Shown here piece after piece: positions 3,564 to 14,688 of a stretch of DNA of 64,000 nt. Positions within the stretch are counted from its first letter, which is position 1; the number at the start of each line of letters is the position of its first letter. The notes under the pieces are model-generated. The model was given only the letters and a program-made list of their open reading frames with translations. It was not told where the DNA came from and ran no database searches. The stretch is from Shigella phage Sf18, in sequence record MF158044; one strand, given 5' to 3'. Made by a program: the position numbers and the translations under genes.

Positions 3564-5708
3564 ATGGTTAAAGTACAAATTATTAAGAAAGACGGTTCAC
3601 TGGAAAACCCAAATGTAAATAAAATCGTCGAAGCAGTTACCAAGTCAGCTAATAGAGTTGGCTACAAAGAGTTACCACTAGAAGTTATCCATGCTCTTGA
3701 ATCAGCCTTTATGAGACTGCTTGTCAGAGCAACTAATCAGAATGCTATGCTCATCTCTGTAGATGATGTTCACAGTATTGTGGAAGGAACTCTGGCAGAG
3801 GTAAACCATGAAATCTATGAGTCATATTCAACCTACAGAAACTATCGTAAAGAGGTTGCACAGAATTGGGATGAACTTTACCAGAAAACTAAAGACACAC
3901 TCTTCTTAGGTGACCGTGAGAATGCTAACTTTGATAGTAGCTTAATCTCTACAAAAGGTTCAATCATCCGTGGGTATCTGACAAAAGAAATCTTTAAGCA
4001 GTATCACTTGACACCAGAAGAAGCAAGTGCTATTGAAGATGGTTTCATTTATATCCATGACTTAAGAGATTTAATCTTCGGTGGTATTAACTGTTGCTTG
4101 TTTGACATTGGAAGCGTCTTGAAAGGTGGTTTTGAAATGTCCGGCATTGAATACTGCGAACCAAAGTCTGTACTTTCAGCTTTACAGGTTATTGGTGACG
4201 TTGTACTCTCAGCAACTGCACAGCAATTTGGTGGATTTACTATCCCAGAGATTGACAAGGTTCTTGTGCCATATGCTAAGAAGTCTTTTGAGTATCATCT
4301 GGAGAAAGCAAAGCAGTATAATATCACAGGGAGAGGTGGTGCATACCACTATGCTAAAGAGCAACTCCAGATTGAACTGACCCAAGGTTTCCAATCTCTG
4401 GAAATGAAGCTAAACACTGTCCCTTGCAGCCGTGGTGACTTTGCATTTACAACATTAACATTTGGTTTACTTGAACCAGATATGGCTAGTGAAGACAACC
4501 GATTGCAATTTATGATTGCGAAGACTATTCTTGATGTGAGAATGAATGGTCAAGGTAAGTCTAAGAAGCCTGTTGTATTCCCTAAACTGGTTTACATTTA
4601 TGATGAGACAAGACATATGCTAGACCCTTGGCAGGGAACTCTTTATGACAAAGCTATTGAGTGCTGTTCTAAAGCTATGTACCCAGACTTCTTAAGTGTT
4701 TCTGGTCATGGTTCTGTTGCAGAAGCTTTTGAGCGTTCAGGTGCAGTCATCTCTCCAATGGGTTGCAGAGCTTTCTTATCACCATATTATGATGAAGATG
4801 GTAAAGAGTTCTACACAGGGCGAGCAAACATTGGTGCAGTATCTCTTAATCTGCCAATGATTTACAAGTATTCTGAAGAGAATTGTTTAGACTTCTGGAC
4901 AGAACTTGACAAGTATCTTGAGATGATTAGAAGCTTCCATAAAAAACGTTATGAGATGATTGCTAATATGCCAGCAAGCTCTAACCCTCTAGCATTCACA
5001 CAAGGTGGTTTGTATAAAGGTCATAAGAAGCCAACTGACAAGATTGGTTGGGATACTGTGAAATCTTTTACAGCCTCTTTTGGTGTCACTGCATTGGATG
5101 AGTTAACAGTACTTGCACAAGGTAAAAGATTACATGAGTCAGACGGTGATATTGCAAGTAAGGTTTTAAACTACCTGAATGGCAAACTGGAGCAGTTTAA
5201 ACAGGAAGATGGTTTCTTGTATGCCCTCTATGGTACACCTGCTGAGAGCCTTTGTGGTACGCAATTGAAGCAGTTTAGAAACATGTTTGGAGTTGTTAAA
5301 GGTGTATCTGATAAAGAATACTTTACAAACAGCTTCCACATGAATGTTGGTGCAGATATTACACCATTTGAAAAGCAAGACTTAGAAGAACCTTTCTTCC
5401 ATGCTTGTAATGGTGGTCATATCCAGTACGTTCGTATTGCTAATCCAGAGAATCATAAAGCTATTAGGGCTTGTGTGACAAGAGGTATGGGTAAAGGTTT
5501 CTATCAAGGTGTTAACTTTGACTTGGCAATCTGTGAGAATTGTGGTCACCGTCCAAGTGCAGATGTTGAATTGTGTCCTAAGTGCAACTCACACGATATC
5601 TCTGTGATTAACCGTGTTTGTGGTTATCTTGGCTGGACTAAGATTAAAGGTACTTCCAGAATGAATGATGCAAAAATTGCTGAAATTCAGGATAGAAAAT
5701 CTATGTAA
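3564..5708 (+). CDS. nrdD: anaerobic ribonucleoside-triphosphate reductase (class III)
   Basis: ATG with AGGAG RBS (ORF-track start 3474 lies inside terminator); C-terminal glycyl-radical motif RVCGYLG and CxxC...CxxC zinc ribbon. Confidence 0.9.
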   Translation: MVKVQIIKKDGSLENPNVNKIVEAVTKSANRVGYKELPLEVIHALESAFMRLLVRATNQNAMLISVDDVHSIVEGTLAEVNHEIYESYSTYRNYRKEVAQNWDELYQKTKDTLFLGDRENANFDSSLISTKGSIIRGYLTKEIFKQYHLTPEEASAIEDGFIYIHDLRDLIFGGINCCLFDIGSVLKGGFEMSGIEYCEPKSVLSALQVIGDVVLSATAQQFGGFTIPEIDKVLVPYAKKSFEYHLEKAKQYNITGRGGAYHYAKEQLQIELTQGFQSLEMKLNTVPCSRGDFAFTTLTFGLLEPDMASEDNRLQFMIAKTILDVRMNGQGKSKKPVVFPKLVYIYDETRHMLDPWQGTLYDKAIECCSKAMYPDFLSVSGHGSVAEAFERSGAVISPMGCRAFLSPYYDEDGKEFYTGRANIGAVSLNLPMIYKYSEENCLDFWTELDKYLEMIRSFHKKRYEMIANMPASSNPLAFTQGGLYKGHKKPTDKIGWDTVKSFTASFGVTALDELTVLAQGKRLHESDGDIASKVLNYLNGKLEQFKQEDGFLYALYGTPAESLCGTQLKQFRNMFGVVKGVSDKEYFTNSFHMNVGADITPFEKQDLEEPFFHACNGGHIQYVRIANPENHKAIRACVTRGMGKGFYQGVNFDLAICENCGHRPSADVELCPKCNSHDISVINRVCGYLGWTKIKGTSRMNDAKIAEIQDRKSM

Positions 5709-5720
5709 GTAGTTGACAAG

Positions 5721-5757
5721 GTGGTGTAGGTCTTGATAGGCTTACATCACCTTTTTT
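5721..5757 (+). terminator. rho-independent terminator after nrdD
   Basis: 11-bp stem (two G-U pairs), 9-nt loop, TTTTTT. Confidence 0.55.
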
Positions 5758-5777
5758 ATTGAGTATGGAATTAACGT

Positions 5778-6035
5778 ATGAGCTATGATTTTTGGCCTAA
5801 ATTTTGGTTATGGTTTCTTGGGATTGCATTAGTAATTCTGATAGGTTTTGCTGTGTATGACAGTTACCACACTAAGCTTTGGATGACTGCAAACCATTGT
5901 CAGCAAACGTCACAGAGTAGAAATTACCTATACTATATGACAGTCATATCAGGCAACACTACAATCATCGTCCCACAAATCGGGACAGAGTACCTGTATG
6001 TTTGTGATAACAACCAAACAATATGGTGGTATTGA
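5778..6035 (+). CDS. hypothetical membrane protein
   Basis: 85 aa ORF with N-terminal hydrophobic helix (FWLWFLGIALVILIGFAV). Confidence 0.35.
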   Translation: MSYDFWPKFWLWFLGIALVILIGFAVYDSYHTKLWMTANHCQQTSQSRNYLYYMTVISGNTTIIVPQIGTEYLYVCDNNQTIWWY

Positions 6036-6131
6036 TGATGATTAAGACATTCTTGTTAGTCACCTTAGTAGGCTCTGTCTTACTAGGTTTCTTGTTAGGG
6101 CTTTTATACAACACATTGAAAGGAAAGAGAA

Positions 6132-6524
6132 ATGACTAAATTAAATAAAAATCAAATGAACTGGCTTAAAGACTATGCTTTAGAGTGTGGCTCTTGTGAG
6201 AAAACTCACAGAAAATACTCAGAGTTTTACATAGCATGTACCCTTTTAATAACTGATTCTGTTATTGATGATGCAAAGGATGATGACATTGAACTCCCTG
6301 CGGAGTTGAGTGATAAAGTCTTAGTAGTAACTGGAACATGGTCAGATTCATATGGTACAGAGATTGGTGACCTGTCATTCTACAGCATTGAACAAACAAT
6401 GAATCCTAAGTACGTTGCTTTGATGACTCGTGCTCAGGAAGATGAACTGCTTCAGGAATTTATTAAAGAGCATTGTGAAGAGTACGTCACAAAACATGTA
6501 AGTTTTGAAGTTGAGGTGTGCTAA
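6132..6524 (+). CDS. hypothetical protein
   Basis: 130 aa ORF; stop overlaps nrdG start (TAATG). Confidence 0.4.
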   Translation: MTKLNKNQMNWLKDYALECGSCEKTHRKYSEFYIACTLLITDSVIDDAKDDDIELPAELSDKVLVVTGTWSDSYGTEIGDLSFYSIEQTMNPKYVALMTRAQEDELLQEFIKEHCEEYVTKHVSFEVEVC

Positions 6525-7009
6525 TGAACTACATGGAAATACGAAAATTCGATACAGCAAACGGGGAAGGTGCTCGTGTCAGTCTTTTTGTAGCTGGCTG
6601 CAAGCATCACTGTGAAGGTTGTTTTAACAAGGAATCTTGGAAGTTTAATGCTGGTAAAGAGTTTACTTATGCAAACCTTTATGGCATTATGCAGATAATG
6701 AATGATGATGGAATCAGTGGTCTATCTATCCTTGGTGGAGAGCCACTTGATGATAGGAATGTTCAGACAGTAACAAATATCTGTAAGCGGATTAAAACCG
6801 TATACCCAGACAAATCTATATGGTTATGGACAGGTTACCAGCTACATGAAAAAATTAACTTAGAAGTGATGAAATATGTTGACGTGGTAATAGATGGCAA
6901 GTATGATGCTTCTAAACCAACACACAAACCATATCGTGGGTCTGACAATCAAATACTTTGGAGAAAAGAATATGGCTGGCAAGGCGACTGTCAATGGAGA
7001 GCAGAATAG
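6524..7009 (+). CDS. nrdG: anaerobic ribonucleotide reductase activating protein (radical SAM)
   Basis: CKHHCEGC (CxxxCxxC) cluster motif; downstream of nrdD; ATG at 6524 chosen over GTG at 6518. Confidence 0.8.
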   Translation: MNYMEIRKFDTANGEGARVSLFVAGCKHHCEGCFNKESWKFNAGKEFTYANLYGIMQIMNDDGISGLSILGGEPLDDRNVQTVTNICKRIKTVYPDKSIWLWTGYQLHEKINLEVMKYVDVVIDGKYDASKPTHKPYRGSDNQILWRKEYGWQGDCQWRAE

Positions 7010-7034
7010 AGCGGGTTTTCGAAGAGGTGAGATT

Positions 7035-7292
7035 ATGACCATCTCTTGCAATAGCTCACTGTTTGGAGAGTATAAGGTTAACCCTAACACTCTTGAAGAT
7101 TGGCAGAAGTACACAAAGAGTCTTTTTGATACAACTGGATTAGACGCTTTAAAAAAGCTTGCAGAAGTTGAAGTTTTCAGAGTAAAATATAAGTCACACA
7201 TGTCAAACTTCTACGCAACAAATATTGTTGAAGATGACAAAGTGGTTTCCGTAACAGAAGAAGAACTGAAGCAGTTCTGTATTAAACTTTAA
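7035..7292 (+). CDS. hypothetical protein
   Basis: In-frame ATG with GAGGTGA RBS; ORF-track start 6894 overlaps nrdG; start uncertain (6972 also possible). Confidence 0.35.
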   Translation: MTISCNSSLFGEYKVNPNTLEDWQKYTKSLFDTTGLDALKKLAEVEVFRVKYKSHMSNFYATNIVEDDKVVSVTEEELKQFCIKL

Positions 7293-7309
7293 TAGAGAGA
7301 GATATTAAA

Positions 7310-7573
7310 ATGGGAATTTTTTCAAACATGAAAGCAGGTTTCTTAGCAGCTCTGGCAAAAGCAGCAGCTATCGTTTCAATGACTGGTAAGCAGGTTGGAG
7401 TAGACGCTTCAGCAGTTGCACAGGTTCTTGCAAGCCAGATTGAACAGCAACCTTACATCCATGTTGGACGTGGTAAAGGTGGTAAGAAGCAAGCTCATCG
7501 CCAAACTGGTGCAGCAGCAATTAAACGTGCAGCTAAAAAAGCTCGCAACCGCAACCGTAAACGTAGCAAGTAA
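7310..7573 (+). CDS. hypothetical protein with highly basic C-terminus
   Basis: 87 aa ORF; Ala-rich N-terminus, KRAAKKARNRNRKRSK tail. Confidence 0.4.
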   Translation: MGIFSNMKAGFLAALAKAAAIVSMTGKQVGVDASAVAQVLASQIEQQPYIHVGRGKGGKKQAHRQTGAAAIKRAAKKARNRNRKRSK

Positions 7574-7584
7574 GGATTATTAAA

Positions 7585-7896
7585 ATGGAAAAGATTTATA
7601 ACACTCGTAAAATTCAGATTTCTATCCTGTGCCAGTTTATGGCTGATAAACACAACTCCCACTATTGTGGTACAGGTTTCCTTACTCTAGGTGGTGGCTA
7701 CATTAGCTTCAAAGAAGCTGTGAAGATATATAATGAGCACCCTGAAGATGATAAAGAGTTAAAACAACTGAAGCTTACTTATGACAAGAAGCGTAAGAAA
7801 ATCATTTGTTTAAACAACCTTATCAAGCCAACTGAAAACGTTTATGATGCAATTGGTGAAGAAGGTTTCTTAAAAGTCTTGAAAATAGCTCAGTAA
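7585..7896 (+). CDS. hypothetical protein
   Basis: 103 aa ORF followed by rho-independent terminator. Confidence 0.4.
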   Translation: MEKIYNTRKIQISILCQFMADKHNSHYCGTGFLTLGGGYISFKEAVKIYNEHPEDDKELKQLKLTYDKKRKKIICLNNLIKPTENVYDAIGEEGFLKVLKIAQ

Positions 7897-7908
7897 ACGT
7901 ATATGATT

Positions 7909-7938
7909 AGGGAACTGTAAAAGGTTCCCTTTTTATTT
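7909..7938 (+). terminator. rho-independent terminator
   Basis: AGGGAAC-tgtaaaag-GTTCCCT then TTTTATTTT. Confidence 0.6.
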
Positions 7939-7948
7939 TGGAGAAATC

Positions 7949-8464
7949 ATGTACCATTCAAATCTGAAACGTGCTGCTGCAATGTCTGTTCTTCGTCTTG
8001 ATTTTGATGAGCGTCAAGAGTTCATCGAGTCACATCAGTATGACCCCTCAAATTCTAATCACATGGTGCTTTGGAACCGTGGTAAGTTCCGTGATAGTGC
8101 CTTGTTCCAGTACTACCCTCATTACACTATTGACAACCTCTATGAATACTGCGTTGTCAAGAACACTATTGCAACCCTTAATAAGCTTTGTAGATATTCT
8201 GGAAAGAAAGCTTTCACATTAGGCCACCATAAGCCCGTGACAAAAGGTGGAGAGCACCATTGCTCTAACTGGTTTATCCAGACTCAAGAGGATAACCAGA
8301 AGCAGGGAGAGAAGCTTCCAGAAGCCCCTAAGATGACTTGGGAAGAACAGAAAGCATATCTTAAAAATAATATGCCACCAATGCTTGACAGAGAATACGC
8401 ATTTCTGGCAATATCACTCTTGTTGAAGCTTGAGACAGTTTATGAGGCAACTTATCATGGCTAG
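7949..8464 (+). CDS. HNH endonuclease-like protein
   Basis: Motif GHHKPVTKGGEHHCSNW...N..K resembles HNH nuclease core. Confidence 0.5.
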   Translation: MYHSNLKRAAAMSVLRLDFDERQEFIESHQYDPSNSNHMVLWNRGKFRDSALFQYYPHYTIDNLYEYCVVKNTIATLNKLCRYSGKKAFTLGHHKPVTKGGEHHCSNWFIQTQEDNQKQGEKLPEAPKMTWEEQKAYLKNNMPPMLDREYAFLAISLLLKLETVYEATYHG

Positions 8465-8735
8465 AGAACAATGGGATATCAAAGAGCTTATTAGCGAAGC
8501 TGGAAATGGTAGTGAGATGTATATGATACGTGGTCACGTCCCAGATGCACTTGCTATTGAGATGATAGACCACTACTCCAACGGATTCTATAAAGAGTTT
8601 GGAGAGCCAAATATTGAACGTACTTGGACAAAACCAGTACCAGACGGAACAGGAAACTGTTCAGTTATCTACCACATTGTAGACCCAAAGAAATGTAAAT
8701 CAGCTATGGCTGTAACATTTGTAACTTTTGACTGA
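8457..8735 (+). CDS. hypothetical protein
   Basis: In-frame ATG at 8457 overlapping previous stop; ORF-track start 8430. Confidence 0.4.
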   Translation: MAREQWDIKELISEAGNGSEMYMIRGHVPDALAIEMIDHYSNGFYKEFGEPNIERTWTKPVPDGTGNCSVIYHIVDPKKCKSAMAVTFVTFD

Positions 8736-8747
8736 GAGAGAGATATT

Positions 8748-9629
8748 ATGAAAACTACTATTCGAGTTCTACTTAATTCAAATTCCAAAGGTTCTCATCA
8801 AGAGACCTTCAACATTATCCAGTTCCCTTCTGGGGAGATTGGTGGTAACTTCTCAGAAGACTTAGTAGACTTTGCTGAACATGCTGCTGGTAAGATTGAA
8901 AACGTAATATTCACTGTACAAGGTTATGACAAAGACACACTCTTTGCATTGGCTATGGCTAAAGAGGCTATTGACCGTTTGATTCCTCAGAAAGCAACCA
9001 TGAAAACTGTTCTTTTTGGATTCTTACCAAATGCTCGCTATGACCGTCACATGTTTAAAGGCGATTCAGCAGCACTTAAAGTCTTTGCAAATCTTGTAAA
9101 TGCTATGGGGTTTGATGCAGTATGTGCTCTGGATACTCACAGTAATGTAGCAGAGAACTTGTTTAAGTGCTTCTACAACATCCCTCAAAAAGAGGCAGCA
9201 GTCCACTTTGCAAGTGACCCACGCATTGATTACTTAGTGGCTCCAGATGCAGGTGCAGCTAAGAAGACTGAAGAGGCTGCTAAAGAGGTTGAGAAACCTT
9301 ATATCACAATGGCAAAGGTACGAAACCTGAAAACTGGTGAAATCACTGGTATGCGAATCCTTGATGATGTAGACTTAACAGGTAAGACTGTTATGATTCT
9401 GGATGATATCTGTGATGGTGGTCGAACCTTTATCGAGGCTGCAAAGTATCTTCGTGAAGCTGGAGCAGAACGTGTAGAGCTTTATGTTACTCATGGGATT
9501 TTCTCTAAAGGTGTTGAAAATCTTCTTGACAATGGCATCGACCATATCTACACTACAGACTCACTAGGGGATGAAAAAGACCGTGGTCTTTCCCACTTCT
9601 CACAAGTGACAGTAGCAAATATTGAATAA
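8748..9629 (+). CDS. ribose-phosphate pyrophosphokinase (Prs)-like protein; candidate ADPR-pyrophosphate synthetase
   Basis: PRPP-synthetase family motifs FPSGEIGG, LPNARYDR, VAPDAGAAKK, ILDDICDGGRT, THGIFS. Confidence 0.75.
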   Translation: MKTTIRVLLNSNSKGSHQETFNIIQFPSGEIGGNFSEDLVDFAEHAAGKIENVIFTVQGYDKDTLFALAMAKEAIDRLIPQKATMKTVLFGFLPNARYDRHMFKGDSAALKVFANLVNAMGFDAVCALDTHSNVAENLFKCFYNIPQKEAAVHFASDPRIDYLVAPDAGAAKKTEEAAKEVEKPYITMAKVRNLKTGEITGMRILDDVDLTGKTVMILDDICDGGRTFIEAAKYLREAGAERVELYVTHGIFSKGVENLLDNGIDHIYTTDSLGDEKDRGLSHFSQVTVANIE

Positions 9630-9673
9630 CAACTTTAGGGGCTGAAAAGCCCCACTTTGAGAGAGATAAAAAG

Positions 9674-11491
9674 ATGACTAAATCAATCTATGCAGTACCA
9701 GCAGGTCTTAATGCAGATGCTTATAAAGCGGGTCATATCTATCAGTATCCAGATGCTACACAGTATCTTATGTTGAACTTAACACCTCGTGGAGATAAAT
9801 GGTTTAACTCTCCGTTAGAGATTGATGGTGTTGTAGCTTTTGGTATTCAGCGTTTTGTAAAAGACTATCTGGTAGACCACTGGAATGCAACGTTCTTTGA
9901 ACGTGATAAGAAAGAAGCCATTGACGAAATCTTGGAAATCATGAATGGTGTCCTTGGTGCAGATGCTATTGGTCGTCAACATTGGGAAGAACTTCATGAC
10001 TTGGGTTACCTGCCTGTTGAAGTCTACTCTGTAGAGGAAGGTACAATTGTCCCTATGCGTGTCCCGATGATTGTCTTCAAAAACACTGTAGAAGGATTCC
10101 ATTGGGTAGCTGGTTATCTTGAAGATGCTTTCTCTGCTGAAATCTGGAAGGCTTGTACGATTGCAACTATTGCACTGCATTACAAACGTATCTGTAAGCA
10201 ATGGGCTGATAAGACCTGTGACAATGACTTCCATTTACCTTGGCAGTGTCATGACTTTGCAATGCGTGGTATGTCTGGCTTCACAGATGATGCGTTTAAC
10301 GCAGTAGGTCACCTGACAAGTTTTAAAGGTACTGACAGCTTCCCTGCTGTATATACAGCTAAACGTGCATATGGTCAGTTTATGAATGTAGGTGAGATTG
10401 GTAACTCTGTCCCAGCTACTGAGCACTCTGTGATGTGTGCAAACATCTCATGGAACAGTCTTAACAAAGAGGTAAGTGATTGGCATCTATCGCATTCTGA
10501 CAACTTACTTGATGCAATGCGTTGGCGTGGTGAGGTAGAAACTTTCCATCGCCTTCTGACAGAAGTTTACCCAACTGGTATTGCAAGTGCCGTATCAGAT
10601 ACTTACAACTTCTGGCGTACTGTTACACAGATTCTGCCAGAGCTACGTAATGTAATTCTGAATCGTGATGGTAAGTTGGTAATTCGTCCAGACTCTGGAG
10701 ACCCTGTTCACATTGTTACAGGTTACAAAGCCATTGAATGGGAAACTGCTAAGTCAATGTTCTATAAGCACATGAAAGAGCTTGCACCGAACAATACACA
10801 TCTGCATGACACAATCTTGAATTGTGAAATGTCTGATATTGGCTTTGGGTTCTCTGCTTGGCTAATCTCTGAAGGTTATGAGATGGTTGTTGATAAAGAA
10901 GATTTTGAATCTGCTGATACAATCAACCTTATTACTGCTCAGAAGACTGGACAGTTTACTGTGAAGCGTATGCTGACAGCAGAAATTGACGGAGCTATCC
11001 ACACGCTGTATAACATCTTTGGTGGCACTGTTAACTCCAAAGGGTACAAAGTACTGGATGAGCACATTGGGCTAATCTACGGTGATTCTATCACTCTGGA
11101 AAGGGCTAATGATATTCTGTCACGTCTTGCTGATAAAGGTTTTGCAAGTTCTAACGTAGTGTTTGGTGTAGGTTCATACACCTATCAGTACCTGACTCGT
11201 GACACCTTTGCATTTGCTGTTAAAGCAACTCTTGCACAGATGGATGGTCAAGAAATTATGCTGGCTAAAGACCCTAAAACTGACAGCGGTCTTAAGAAGT
11301 CTGCTTTTGGTGGAGTTGTCCCTATGTGGGATGGTGACAAGCTGGTAGCTGTAGATGGTTTTGGCTTTGCAGAGTTTGAAGGTGCAATTGACAATTGTCA
11401 TAGTGCTTTGAAACTGGTATTTAGCAACTCGCAACCTTATGGTTACGTTAACCTGCGTGATGTTCGAAATACTATTGACAAGCAACTTTAA
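9674..11491 (+). CDS. nicotinamide phosphoribosyltransferase (Nampt)-like protein; candidate nicotinamide ADPR transferase
   Basis: NAMPT motifs DAYKAGHIYQYP, HDFAMRGMSG, FKGTDS, EHSVM, VSDTYNFW, IRPDSGDP; 605 aa, longer than typical ~490 aa. Confidence 0.85.
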   Translation: MTKSIYAVPAGLNADAYKAGHIYQYPDATQYLMLNLTPRGDKWFNSPLEIDGVVAFGIQRFVKDYLVDHWNATFFERDKKEAIDEILEIMNGVLGADAIGRQHWEELHDLGYLPVEVYSVEEGTIVPMRVPMIVFKNTVEGFHWVAGYLEDAFSAEIWKACTIATIALHYKRICKQWADKTCDNDFHLPWQCHDFAMRGMSGFTDDAFNAVGHLTSFKGTDSFPAVYTAKRAYGQFMNVGEIGNSVPATEHSVMCANISWNSLNKEVSDWHLSHSDNLLDAMRWRGEVETFHRLLTEVYPTGIASAVSDTYNFWRTVTQILPELRNVILNRDGKLVIRPDSGDPVHIVTGYKAIEWETAKSMFYKHMKELAPNNTHLHDTILNCEMSDIGFGFSAWLISEGYEMVVDKEDFESADTINLITAQKTGQFTVKRMLTAEIDGAIHTLYNIFGGTVNSKGYKVLDEHIGLIYGDSITLERANDILSRLADKGFASSNVVFGVGSYTYQYLTRDTFAFAVKATLAQMDGQEIMLAKDPKTDSGLKKSAFGGVVPMWDGDKLVAVDGFGFAEFEGAIDNCHSALKLVFSNSQPYGYVNLRDVRNTIDKQL

Positions 11492-11503
11492 AACAGTATG
11501 ATA

Positions 11504-11528
11504 AGAGGCTCCTACGGGAGCCTTTTTA
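11504..11528 (+). terminator. rho-independent terminator after Nampt-like gene
   Basis: GAGGCTCC-tacg-GGAGCCTT then TTTT. Confidence 0.6.
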
Positions 11529-12315: not shown

Positions 12316-14688
12316 ATGCGCATGGTAAATGACCACGCAACGGTAATTAAAAGCTCAAGTACACTGGAAACCTCTCAGGCTCAGATTAAGATGACACCTG
12401 AAATGTTCAGTCTTCTAAGCTCAGGTGTTTACACATATAAAGAACGTGCTGTAATTCGTGAATTGTCATGTAACGCAGTAGATGCTCACATTGATTCTGG
12501 TAACGTTGATAAACCTTTCTTGGTTCACTTACCAACTCGTTTCGAGCCATTCTTTGAAGTTCGTGACTTTGGTACAGGGCTGACTCATGATAAAGTTATG
12601 AAACTTTACATGACCTATGGAGAATCTACAAAGAACGATTCAAACGACTACATTGGTGCTATGGGTATCGGTTCAAAGTCACCTTTTGCAATTGCTCAGT
12701 CATTCACTGTATCAAGCTATGTTGATGGTGTAGTTAACAAATACTCAGTTTACCTTGAGAATGGCATCCCTCAAGTAACTAAGTTGACTACTAACCCAAC
12801 TACAGAGCCAAATGGTTTAGCTGTTCGAGTAGCGGTATCCGATAACCGTATCAACAAGTTTCATGAAGAAGCGAGCAATGTATACTCGTACTTTAAAGTT
12901 AAGCCAGAGTGTAATGTTGAGTACTATGACATTCTTGAAGCAATGACTTCCATTTCTCGTGAAGATGGTGTCTATGATGCAATGAAGTACAAAGAGAACT
13001 GGCGTTCAAATAGTAACAGTGTCCATTTCAATGTAATCATGGGTAATATTGCTTATCCTGTTGAAATGGGTGAGTTGCTTGGTTCAGAGTTTACAAGCAT
13101 TCTGCCTCAGTTCTTCCGTAGTGCTGTAGACCTTGTTAACATCTACATGCCAATTGGTTCAGTGGCTATTGCTGCATCTCGTGAAGCATTGCAGATGAAT
13201 GAGACCACTAAGACCAAGATTGTTGAAGCTGTGAAGAAAATCACTAAGACAATCGTAGAAGATGTGGTAAAAGAGATTGCTAACAAGCCAACTCTGATTG
13301 ATGCTGCTCAAGCCTATGATACCATGAGGAAGGAGGCTCGTGAAATCTTTATTCACGTCCAAGATTCTCTGGAATGGCAAGGCCAGAACTTGAAAAAGCT
13401 TGAACAAAAACTGTTAGGTATCCGTCGTGGTCAGTTAACTGAAGCAGATGGTTCTCCATCATTCTTGAAAGATGATGCAGGTAACTTGAGGCTTGACAAA
13501 GATGGTAATCCAGTTCCTAATATTGGTAATCTGTATGAACCTGTAGCATACTACAAGTACAGCAGTCTGGAGAACCGTATTCGAGCAACTTCAGCAACTT
13601 ATTCACAAGATTCAGCAATGTTTAGTATCTTTGGTGCAATGAGTAAAGATAAGTTGAGCAACTATTTGTTCCTTATCAATGACCGTCGAAACAAGAACGG
13701 GTCTGAGAAGACAACTGGTAAAAACCAGATTATCCGTGGAGCTTGCCGTGACCGTGAACAGGAAGACTCTAACTTCCGTCGCTACAACGGTATTGCTTTC
13801 TTGTTCAGCAGTCAGCAGCAATTCGATGAGTTTGTAGATTTGCATATGCTTGACAAGAGTCTGTTAAGTGTGCATACAATGTCATCTAAAGAGCACCACT
13901 ATGAGAAACGTACTATTGTACGTGGTGTTGTAAAACTGTATAAAGCATTTATATGTCCAAATACCGACATAATTCGCTATACAGAGGTTAAAGAGAACTT
14001 TGATGAGATTGAAGAACCACAACTGTATATCAAAGCACAGAGTGATGAAGTGATTGGTGGAATCTTCTCATGTTCACCAGAACGTGCTGCAACGTTGATG
14101 ACAGAGTTAACTGGACAGTCAGTTTATGTCTTCCGTAAAGCCAACTGGAAAAAGATTCCTGAAGATTGGACAGAAGTCAATGAACAAGTATTGAAAGATT
14201 TTATTGATGCCACACATTGGATTGAGTATCATCGTTTCTTGACTCACCAGTATATGACAAATAATCACGATATCACTGATTGTAATGTTATTTCTCGAAA
14301 CTTTACGTTTGCTGATAAGCGTAAGTCCAGAGGCCACATTTACAGTAAAGATTTTAAGAAGACTATTTTCTTAGAAGGGAATGAAGAAGCTATAGAAGCA
14401 ATGTTTGGACGCTTGGCATACACTGCTGCACCAGTTGCTTACAAAGATATTACCAGCACTCTTGATACCATTCGTAGGAATATGAGAGGTTCTTGTAAGC
14501 CAAGAAAGGTTCTGGATAACGCTAAGAAGCGTCTTGAAAGCAAGTTCAAAGATTACTTTGAGAAACGCCGTAAAGAAAACTTCTTGCTTTCTAATCTGGA
14601 TTGGAATAAAGTATCACCAGTCGAAGTTGGTAAGTTCTTAGGTTTTGATACTAAGAGCATTCCAGAAGACACTGTATGCTGGGATTAA
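12316..14688 (+). CDS. rIIA: rIIA-like protein with N-terminal GHKL-type ATPase fold
   Basis: Bergerat-fold motifs (ELSCNAVDA, RDFGTGL, GAMGIGSKS); 790 aa; followed by rIIB-like gene. Confidence 0.6.
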   Translation: MRMVNDHATVIKSSSTLETSQAQIKMTPEMFSLLSSGVYTYKERAVIRELSCNAVDAHIDSGNVDKPFLVHLPTRFEPFFEVRDFGTGLTHDKVMKLYMTYGESTKNDSNDYIGAMGIGSKSPFAIAQSFTVSSYVDGVVNKYSVYLENGIPQVTKLTTNPTTEPNGLAVRVAVSDNRINKFHEEASNVYSYFKVKPECNVEYYDILEAMTSISREDGVYDAMKYKENWRSNSNSVHFNVIMGNIAYPVEMGELLGSEFTSILPQFFRSAVDLVNIYMPIGSVAIAASREALQMNETTKTKIVEAVKKITKTIVEDVVKEIANKPTLIDAAQAYDTMRKEAREIFIHVQDSLEWQGQNLKKLEQKLLGIRRGQLTEADGSPSFLKDDAGNLRLDKDGNPVPNIGNLYEPVAYYKYSSLENRIRATSATYSQDSAMFSIFGAMSKDKLSNYLFLINDRRNKNGSEKTTGKNQIIRGACRDREQEDSNFRRYNGIAFLFSSQQQFDEFVDLHMLDKSLLSVHTMSSKEHHYEKRTIVRGVVKLYKAFICPNTDIIRYTEVKENFDEIEEPQLYIKAQSDEVIGGIFSCSPERAATLMTELTGQSVYVFRKANWKKIPEDWTEVNEQVLKDFIDATHWIEYHRFLTHQYMTNNHDITDCNVISRNFTFADKRKSRGHIYSKDFKKTIFLEGNEEAIEAMFGRLAYTAAPVAYKDITSTLDTIRRNMRGSCKPRKVLDNAKKRLESKFKDYFEKRRKENFLLSNLDWNKVSPVEVGKFLGFDTKSIPEDTVCWD

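Follow-up and report, generated by a model that had tools for sequence, protein, structure and literature searches.

A predicted core NARP1 operon in Shigella phage Sf18

When a phage carries a gene resembling phosphoribosyl pyrophosphate (PRPP) synthetase (Prs) next to a gene resembling nicotinamide phosphoribosyltransferase (Nampt), do the two enzymes salvage nicotinamide in the classical way, or do they rebuild NAD+ that host immunity has destroyed? This question is raised by two adjacent genes in a 64,000-nucleotide stretch of Shigella phage Sf18 (record MF158044), hereafter called the window. A preliminary description, made from the DNA letters alone, had favored a route from ADP-ribose (ADPR) and nicotinamide to NAD+ that counters defence over classical salvage. 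The current analysis supports that proposal: the route matches NAD+ reconstitution pathway 1 (NARP1), and we estimate a probability of about 0.9 that the pair is the core NARP1 operon of an Ounavirinae phage and works as NARP1. The two genes, both on the plus strand and separated by a gap of 44 nt, are listed below.

8748-9629, plus strand: adps (ORF1), 293 aa, Prs family; predicted ADP-ribose pyrophosphokinase, that is, synthetase of ADP-ribose pyrophosphate (ADPR-PP).
9674-11491, plus strand: namat, 605 aa, Nampt family; predicted nicotinamide ADPR-transferase.

NARP1 is already known from published work, which covers the mechanism and structure of the pathway as well as its occurrence in this phage lineage, the type example. 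NARP1 was discovered in BASEL phage Bas63 (JohannRWettstein; Felixounavirus; MZ501086), where it is encoded by genes 79 and 80, and the discovery began from the same 'Prs + Nampt' gene pair (10.1101/2024.02.11.579819). In that study, deletion of the pair led to ~20-fold fewer plaques on SIR2-HerA hosts and to deeper NAD+ depletion; the rescue was independent of host pncC and nadR, and the new metabolite ADPR-PP was found only in infections with wild-type Bas63. The Bas63 protein 'did not purify well', and the chemistry was shown with homologues from Bacillus phage SPbetaL1 instead. In vitro, SPbetaL1 Adps made ADPR-PP from ADPR and ATP, with no product measurable in a control reaction intended to reveal Prs activity, and SPbetaL1 Namat converted ADPR-PP and nicotinamide to NAD+, with NAD+ alone being made when PRPP was also supplied (10.1101/2024.02.11.579819). 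By analogy, we infer that the results from Bas63 and SPbetaL1 carry over to the phage studied here. In such a scheme, a defence that depletes NAD+ (for example, SIR2-HerA/Nezha, type I Thoeris, DSR1/2, SEFIR or Kongming) would split NAD+ into ADPR and nicotinamide; Adps would use ATP to pyrophosphorylate the terminal ribose of ADPR, giving ADPR-PP; and Namat would exchange the pyrophosphate of ADPR-PP for nicotinamide, yielding NAD+ directly, with neither nicotinamide mononucleotide (NMN) nor an adenylyltransferase being needed. For the window pair, the assignment to NARP1 draws on identity to known proteins, conserved gene order, and the residues of the active sites and specificity motifs.

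Relationship of the gene pair to characterized NARP1 operons

The family membership of both genes was examined by profile searches. As proposed in the preliminary description, the product of 8748-9629 belongs to the Prs family, with matches to PF00156 (2e-11), PF14572 (6.5e-10), TIGR01251 (7e-39) and PHROG 619 (3e-100), and the product of 9674-11491 belongs to the Nampt family, with matches to PF04095 (1e-31), PF18127, NF006629 (2e-139) and PHROG 448 (2e-199). These family assignments are far beyond chance. Moreover, the motifs on which the earlier assignments had been based were all found in the translations: FPSGEIGG, LPNARYDR, VAPDAGAAKK and ILDDICDGGRT in adps, and DAYKAGHIYQYP, HDFAMRGMSG, FKGTDS, EHSVM and IRPDSGDP in namat.

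At the nucleotide level, the adps-namat region shares 99.0% identity with that of Shigella phage Sf17 (Ounavirinae, Mooglevirus) and 94-99% with those of a number of Shigella, Citrobacter and Escherichia phages; altogether, 256 phage records match. Adps differs from Sf17 gp105 at 3 residues, and Namat differs from Sf17 gp106 at 2 residues. The Sf17 pair is contained in Tables S1/S2 of Osterman et al. (10.1101/2024.02.11.579819), where it is entered as Prs/Adps with 'Namat within 10 genes = Yes', and where MF327004_00132 is given in Table S2 as an 'Adps-associated' Namat. It follows that the operon in the window, apart from 5 amino-acid changes, has already been catalogued as NARP1.

The relationship to the experimentally studied Bas63 system is also close. 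Adps is 81% identical to Bas63_0079 across all 293 residues without a gap, and Namat is 75% identical to Bas63_0080. Both phages belong to the subfamily Ounavirinae, and they share the gene order from nrdG to rIIA, an Adps of 293 aa and two insertions in Namat (see below); they differ in genus, Bas63 being a Felixounavirus and the phage studied here a Mooglevirus. Linkage of adps and namat is retained in more distant phages. In Erwinia phage phiEa21-4 the two genes are adjacent, and an annotated terminator follows nadV at the same place as in the window; in Klebsiella phage 05F01, two small ORFs lie between adps and namat.

The second reference system is NARP1 of SPbetaL1 (Adps, WIT26982; Namat, WIT26983; PDB 9w5w/9w5x), which is the system in which the conversion of ADPR to ADPR-PP and then to NAD+ was demonstrated. 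It shares with the window the gene order as well as the catalytic and adenine-clamp residues, and its Namat has the same fold as the window Namat (target-normalised TM 0.94). In SPbetaL1, however, adps and namat overlap, whereas in the window they are separated by the 44-nt gap and a hairpin.

Specificity features of Adps and Namat

Prs and Adps belong to one superfamily and share a fold, as do NadV/NAMPT and Namat. In Adps, Lys190 (within MAKVRN) is the predicted catalytic residue; it aligns with K162, which is essential in SPbetaL1 Adps and is the equivalent of K197 in Bacillus subtilis Prs. The catalytic His (in LDTHS), the ARYDR motif and the KxR motif of the flexible loop are retained. 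Two features of canonical Prs have no equivalent: the ribose-5-phosphate loop reads DDICDGGRT in Adps rather than DDMIDTGGT as in bacterial Prs, and the C-terminal helix of E. coli Prs (~22 residues) is without a counterpart. Scores against hidden Markov models (HMMs) and individual sequences pointed in the same direction. Adps fell below all NCBIfam Prs equivalog cut-offs and passed only the broad subfamily model TIGR01251; the best Prs-specific models gave 104-107 bits against cut-offs of 296-297 (for example, PRK01259 at 104 bits against 297). When compared directly, Adps scored 94.7 bits against SPbetaL1 Adps and 72 bits against E. coli Prs. All of its 120 best database relatives are 185-310 aa long, shorter than the 315-aa Prs. 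Judged by these data and by the 81% identity to Bas63 Adps, which defines the clade, ORF1 would fall within the phage Adps clade, apart from cellular Prs; the equivalog scores, the ribose-5-phosphate loop and the C-terminal helix all speak against a canonical Prs.

For Namat, the published crystal structures of the SPbetaL1 enzyme with nicotinamide and with NAD+ (Lan et al., PMC12774641) provided the framework. These structures revealed a Nampt-like core together with an adenine 'selectivity clamp' made of two elements: a clamp helix (SCH) with the motif GSX-phi-X-phi-X-phi-TRD, in which X is aromatic, and a clamp loop (SCL), which is a variable beta1-beta2 loop that gives one adenine-stacking residue. 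In the SCL, either an Arg at position 3 stacks on the adenine, or position 3 is Lys or Tyr and residue 4 stacks; in the published AF3 model of Bas63 Namat, it is SCL residue 4 that stacks on the adenine (PMC12774641). The corresponding elements of the window Namat are as follows.

9797-9802, plus strand: SCL pair K42-W43, within G40-D41-K42-W43, aligned with R40-V41 of SPbetaL1 Namat.
11171-11203, plus strand: SCH motif GSYTYQYLTRD, residues 500-510, a Namat signature.

The core residues D15, Y17, F195, R198, D221, A248, H251, R338 and D340, together with G470-D471-S472, are all present in the window Namat; the matching residues of the SPbetaL1 core are D13, Y15, F189, R192, D215, A242, the catalytic His, R306 and D308. 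In addition, all SPbetaL1 Namat residues that contact nicotinamide or NAD+ are conserved or conservatively replaced. Namat shares the catalytic His and the nicotinamide pocket with bacterial NadV/NAMPT, from which it differs by its adenine-binding clamp. Within this clamp, the SCL lies in the context PRGDKWFNSPL, of which DKWFNSPL is the same in Bas63; it differs from the SCL of SPbetaL1, where Arg40 stacks on the adenine at the place of Lys-Trp in the window. The aromatic residues of the SCH are Y502 and Y506, and its third phi position is occupied by Leu, which is rarer than the usual Asn or Val. The SCH of Bas63 is nearly identical, with Met instead of Leu at position 8. As a control, the NARP2-type Nampt of Aeromonas phage phiAS4 was inspected; it has GMGGGLLQMVNRD at the SCH position and a short SCL loop. 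This enzyme (with GGGLLQMVNRD) is without the aromatic clamp and is ~26-32% identical to the window Namat. All of the sequence features that were later found to determine specificity for ADPR-PP are present in the window Namat.

The fold of Namat was assessed by using an AF2 model, which had a predicted local distance difference test score (pLDDT) of 91.7 and a predicted template modelling score (pTM) of 0.90. When this model was searched against the PDB with Foldseek, the Namat structures 9w5x/9w5w took ranks 1-7 (E 1e-53; target-normalised TM 0.93-0.95), and HdNadV (E 2e-46), human NAMPT (E 5e-38) and mouse NAMPT ranked lower. The modelled fold of the window Namat thus appears closer to Namat than to Nampt/NadV. 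Taken together, the comparison of profiles and structures, which the preliminary description had put forward as a check, favored Adps over Prs by HMM cut-offs and Namat over NadV by Foldseek.

Namat insertions and alternative readings of the pair

The preliminary description had noted that the Nampt-like protein is about 110 aa longer than is typical, and this excess was borne out: Namat has 605 aa, compared with 491 aa for SPbetaL1 Namat and 492 aa for phiAS4 Nampt. The excess of ~114 aa is made up of two insertions.

10445-10531, plus strand: Ins1, residues ~258-286, helical in the model, just past the catalytic His251.
10727-10981, plus strand: Ins2, residues ~352-436, an alpha/beta subdomain of ~85 aa, just past the RPDSGDP active-site strand.

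In the alignment, both insertions are absent from SPbetaL1 Namat, from bacterial homologues and from Nampt. They are found in Bas63 and in every long form (~590-610 aa) of the Ounavirinae-like type, down to ~44% identity, and shorter versions occur in two metagenomic proteins (560 and 573 aa). Ins1 is 11-12 residues longer in the window than in Bas63, whose Namat has 593 aa. Ins2 forms a compact beta-alpha-alpha-alpha-beta-beta-alpha-beta unit in the model and, when modelled alone, again folded confidently (pLDDT 91.2, pTM 0.81); no structural relative was detected for it in the PDB or BFVD. Across homologues, Ins2 has almost no invariant polar residues, which makes a role in structure or interaction more plausible than a second catalytic site. 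The insertions are compatible with function, given that NARP1 of Bas63 is active in vivo. We found no mention of either insertion in the two NARP1 papers searched. That Ins2, with Ins1, both confined to Ounavirinae-type Namat enzymes, adds an undescribed function to NARP1 (docking of Adps such that the labile ADPR-PP is channelled, regulation, or shielding from a host counter-measure) is a tentative idea that we regard as rather unlikely.

Several points weigh against the assignment of the pair to NARP1. All of the in-vitro chemistry and all of the crystal structures come from SPbetaL1, the proteins of which are ~34% (Adps) and ~41-43% (Namat) identical to those in the window, and the Ounavirinae Namat has the two insertions, ~114 aa in all, next to active-site strands. 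Namat also keeps NMN-forming activity with PRPP in vitro, such that some classical activity is possible (10.1101/2024.02.11.579819; PMC12774641). Moreover, the placement of Adps in its clade was made from identity to Bas63 Adps and HMM cut-offs, not from a tree, and the search for an NMN adenylyltransferase (NMNAT), for which the queries were E. coli NadD and NadR only, plus published annotation, has a sensitivity limited to NadD/NadR-like enzymes. Within that sensitivity, the earlier statement that the window contains no NMNAT holds. When tblastn was run against the window, E. coli NadD gave no match and the best match of NadR had an E value of 2.9; likewise, no NMNAT appears in the InterPro-based annotation of the complete, 99%-identical Sf17 genome. 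A 'nucleotidyltransferase' of phiAS4, used as a further probe, also had no match in the window, and by our own reading that sequence looks like another kind of nucleotidyltransferase rather than an NMNAT. A missing NMNAT is in line with the published observation that NARP1 and NARP2 were not found together in any phage (10.1101/2024.02.11.579819).

These data allow the alternatives to be weighed. In classical salvage, the pair would be a true PRPP synthetase plus a Nampt/NadV that makes NMN, which host NadR or PncC/NadD would then convert to NAD+. The names given by Pfam, NCBIfam and GenBank are all of the Prs/Nampt type, Namat homologues do yield NMN from PRPP in vitro, and the genes lie within a nucleotide-metabolism region (nrdAB, nrdDG and a deoxynucleoside monophosphate kinase). 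However, the counter-defence of Bas63 persists in a host without pncC and nadR, ADPR-PP accumulates only when the Bas63 operon is present, the sole Adps tested in vitro (that of SPbetaL1) made ADPR-PP and nothing measurable in the Prs control, and Namat that was given both donors made only NAD+. In the window itself, ORF1 lies below every Prs equivalog cut-off and Namat has the adenine clamp that Nampt lacks, and we consider classical salvage improbable. The same genomic surroundings, with ribonucleotide reductase and other genes of nucleotide metabolism, would also suit a pair that raises the pools of PRPP and pyridine nucleotides whether or not a defence is active, as does NARP2 (Nampt + Nmnat) of Vibrio phage KVP40 and T4-like relatives, which raises NAD+ even without a defence system. 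NARP2 resembles the window module in having a Nampt-family enzyme and in countering NAD+-depleting defences, but it needs an NMNAT and PRPP and is without Adps. Given that no NMNAT was detected here, that the two pathways did not coincide in any phage of the published survey, that both motif and structure place the window Namat with Namat rather than with Nampt, and that NAD+ synthesis by NARP1 is reported to require available ADPR, a function as a booster of nucleotide precursors is very improbable.

Finally, the Namat insertions or the ORFs upstream of adps might add a further activity to the pathway, for example on ADPR-1''-phosphate or cyclic ADPR (cADPR). Ins2 is, as described above, a confidently folded extra domain beside an active-site strand and without a known relative, and accessory functions have repeatedly become attached to NARP1 (Adpp and RyDEP; see below). 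Yet neither the insertions nor the flanking ORFs gave a match to a Macro, RyR or other ligand-binding family, Ins2 is nearly devoid of invariant polar residues, and the 171-aa upstream ORF has no link to NARP1 in the other phage checked; such an extension is accordingly hardly to be expected. The reading of the pair as a core NARP1 operon is the one that we retain.

Transcription context, neighbouring genes and distribution

The boundaries of the adps-namat block were examined by a consensus scan for promoter-like sites and hairpins, which gave the following features.

7879-7930, plus strand: promoter-like site TTGAAA-17-TATGAT at 7879-7907, abutting a terminator-like hairpin at 7909-7930.
9638-9653, plus strand: intergenic hairpin GGGGCT-GAAA-AGCCCC (-12.8 kcal/mol), GC-rich, without a proper T-run.
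11475-11526, plus strand: promoter-like site TTGACA-16-TATGAT at 11475-11502, abutting the terminator at 11503-11526.

The terminator that the preliminary description had placed behind both genes was confirmed; it is a strong intrinsic terminator, has a 10-bp stem with 5 G-C pairs and a T-run at 11503-11526, begins 12 nt past the namat stop codon, and its stem is identical in Bas63 and Sf17. The promoter-like site in front of it overlaps the namat stop codon and would serve the next unit. On the other side, the arrangement of promoter and hairpin at 7879-7930 is conserved in Bas63 and is likely the upstream boundary of the transcription unit that bears the operon. Of the window's 16 promoter-like sites, these two alone show such a fusion of promoter and hairpin. 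In both cases, one on either side of the gene block, a strong sigma-70-like promoter sequence ends 0-1 nt ahead of the terminator hairpin, and transcripts from these two promoter-like sites would begin within or just past the hairpin.

Between adps and namat, the hairpin at 9638-9653, which the preliminary description had left unmentioned, precedes the GAGAGAGA ribosome-binding stretch of namat. Its core GGGGC/GCCCC stem is identical in Bas63, and the flanking bases differ. This hairpin might be a partial terminator or attenuator, or an RNA-stability element, that sets the ratio of Adps to Namat. Two small ORFs lie directly upstream of adps.

7949-8464, plus strand: upstream ORF, 171 aa, PHROG 3500, with weak similarity to HNH endonucleases (E 2e-5).
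8457-8735, plus strand: upstream ORF, 92 aa, PHROG 4726, no Pfam match; immediate neighbour of adps.

Because the 92-aa ORF is separated from adps by 12 nt and no strong promoter-like site was found directly before adps, the operon is probably co-transcribed with the two upstream ORFs, possibly including the 171-aa ORF. An accessory role in NARP1 was considered for both ORFs and was rejected, as no Macro, RyR or other informative domain was found in either. Only Felixounavirus and Mooglevirus phages have the 92-aa ORF. The 171-aa ORF has homologues (41-47% identity) in Stephanstirmvirinae phages of ~150 kb; in the single genome of this kind that was checked, that of phage nieznany, the homologue lies beside a UvrD-type helicase and nrd genes, and there is no Prs or Nampt gene within 20 kb on either side of it. 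The accessory role of the 171-aa ORF was rejected on this ground as well, it being not linked to NARP1 in the other phage checked. Both upstream ORFs are genomic context and not components of NARP1.

The gene order nrdD, nrdG, small ORFs, adps, namat, three small ORFs, rIIA and rIIB is common to the window, Bas63 and Sf17. The region from 12316 to 14688 and further downstream contains, between NARP1 and rIIA/rIIB, a DUF7279 ORF, an uncharacterised ORF and a CxxC-rich membrane peptide, in the same order as in Bas63 and Sf17. Extended forms of NARP1 share the Adps and Namat core and differ by an extra gene in or next to the operon, encoding either a Macro domain (PF01661, PF14519 or PF20016) or a RyR domain (PF02026). 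In NARP1-AP, a Macro-domain ADPR-1''-phosphate phosphatase (Adpp) lies within two genes of the operon; RyDEP is a RyR-domain cADPR glycosidase. In the nine ORFs that flank the pair in the window, neither a Macro domain (PF01661, PF14519, PF20016) nor a RyR domain (PF02026) was found by Pfam hmmscan at E values up to 1 or with PHROGs; for the Macro domain, the original NARP1-AP study used HHpred, which is more sensitive than Pfam hmmscan. Because neither domain was detected in the flanking ORFs, the window is predicted to carry the core two-gene form of NARP1, with neither a Macro nor a RyR accessory gene. A PADLOC scan gave only weak, generic similarity of the phosphoribosyltransferase domain to ShosT and PsyrT and was uninformative.

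Two further observations concern relatives of the locus. In Escherichia phage phiSUSP1 (KT454805.2, 53344-56559), the match to the adps-namat region is split in two, with a 'putative homing endonuclease' annotated within it; the NARP1 locus may be a target for insertion of mobile endonucleases in some relatives. The closest short-form homologues of Namat (496 aa, with GSFTYQYNTRD) are encoded on the chromosomes of Klebsiella, Phytobacter, Kosakonia and relatives. In Klebsiella michiganensis (GCA_023685665.1, positions 4211-7491 of the locus examined), the short-form namat follows a 289-aa Prs-like gene and is accompanied by a divergent regulator of the NrtR type (Nudix + WHD_NrtR), between crp/prkB and kefB/slyD and outside any prophage. 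From its gene content, this locus looks like an ADPR-regulated bacterial NARP1; we found no mention of NrtR in the two NARP1 papers searched.

For the phage itself, the lack of a Macro-domain phosphatase implies that the module would fail against aRES-type defences, which make ADPR-1''-phosphate, and the absence of Adpp thus points to a weakness against aRES. More broadly, NARP1 undoes an end-point that is common to many unrelated defences (Thoeris, DSR1/2, SIR2-HerA, SEFIR and Kongming), and an intact NARP1 in a Shigella/Citrobacter/E. coli myophage of a therapeutically used group helps in the prediction of host range.

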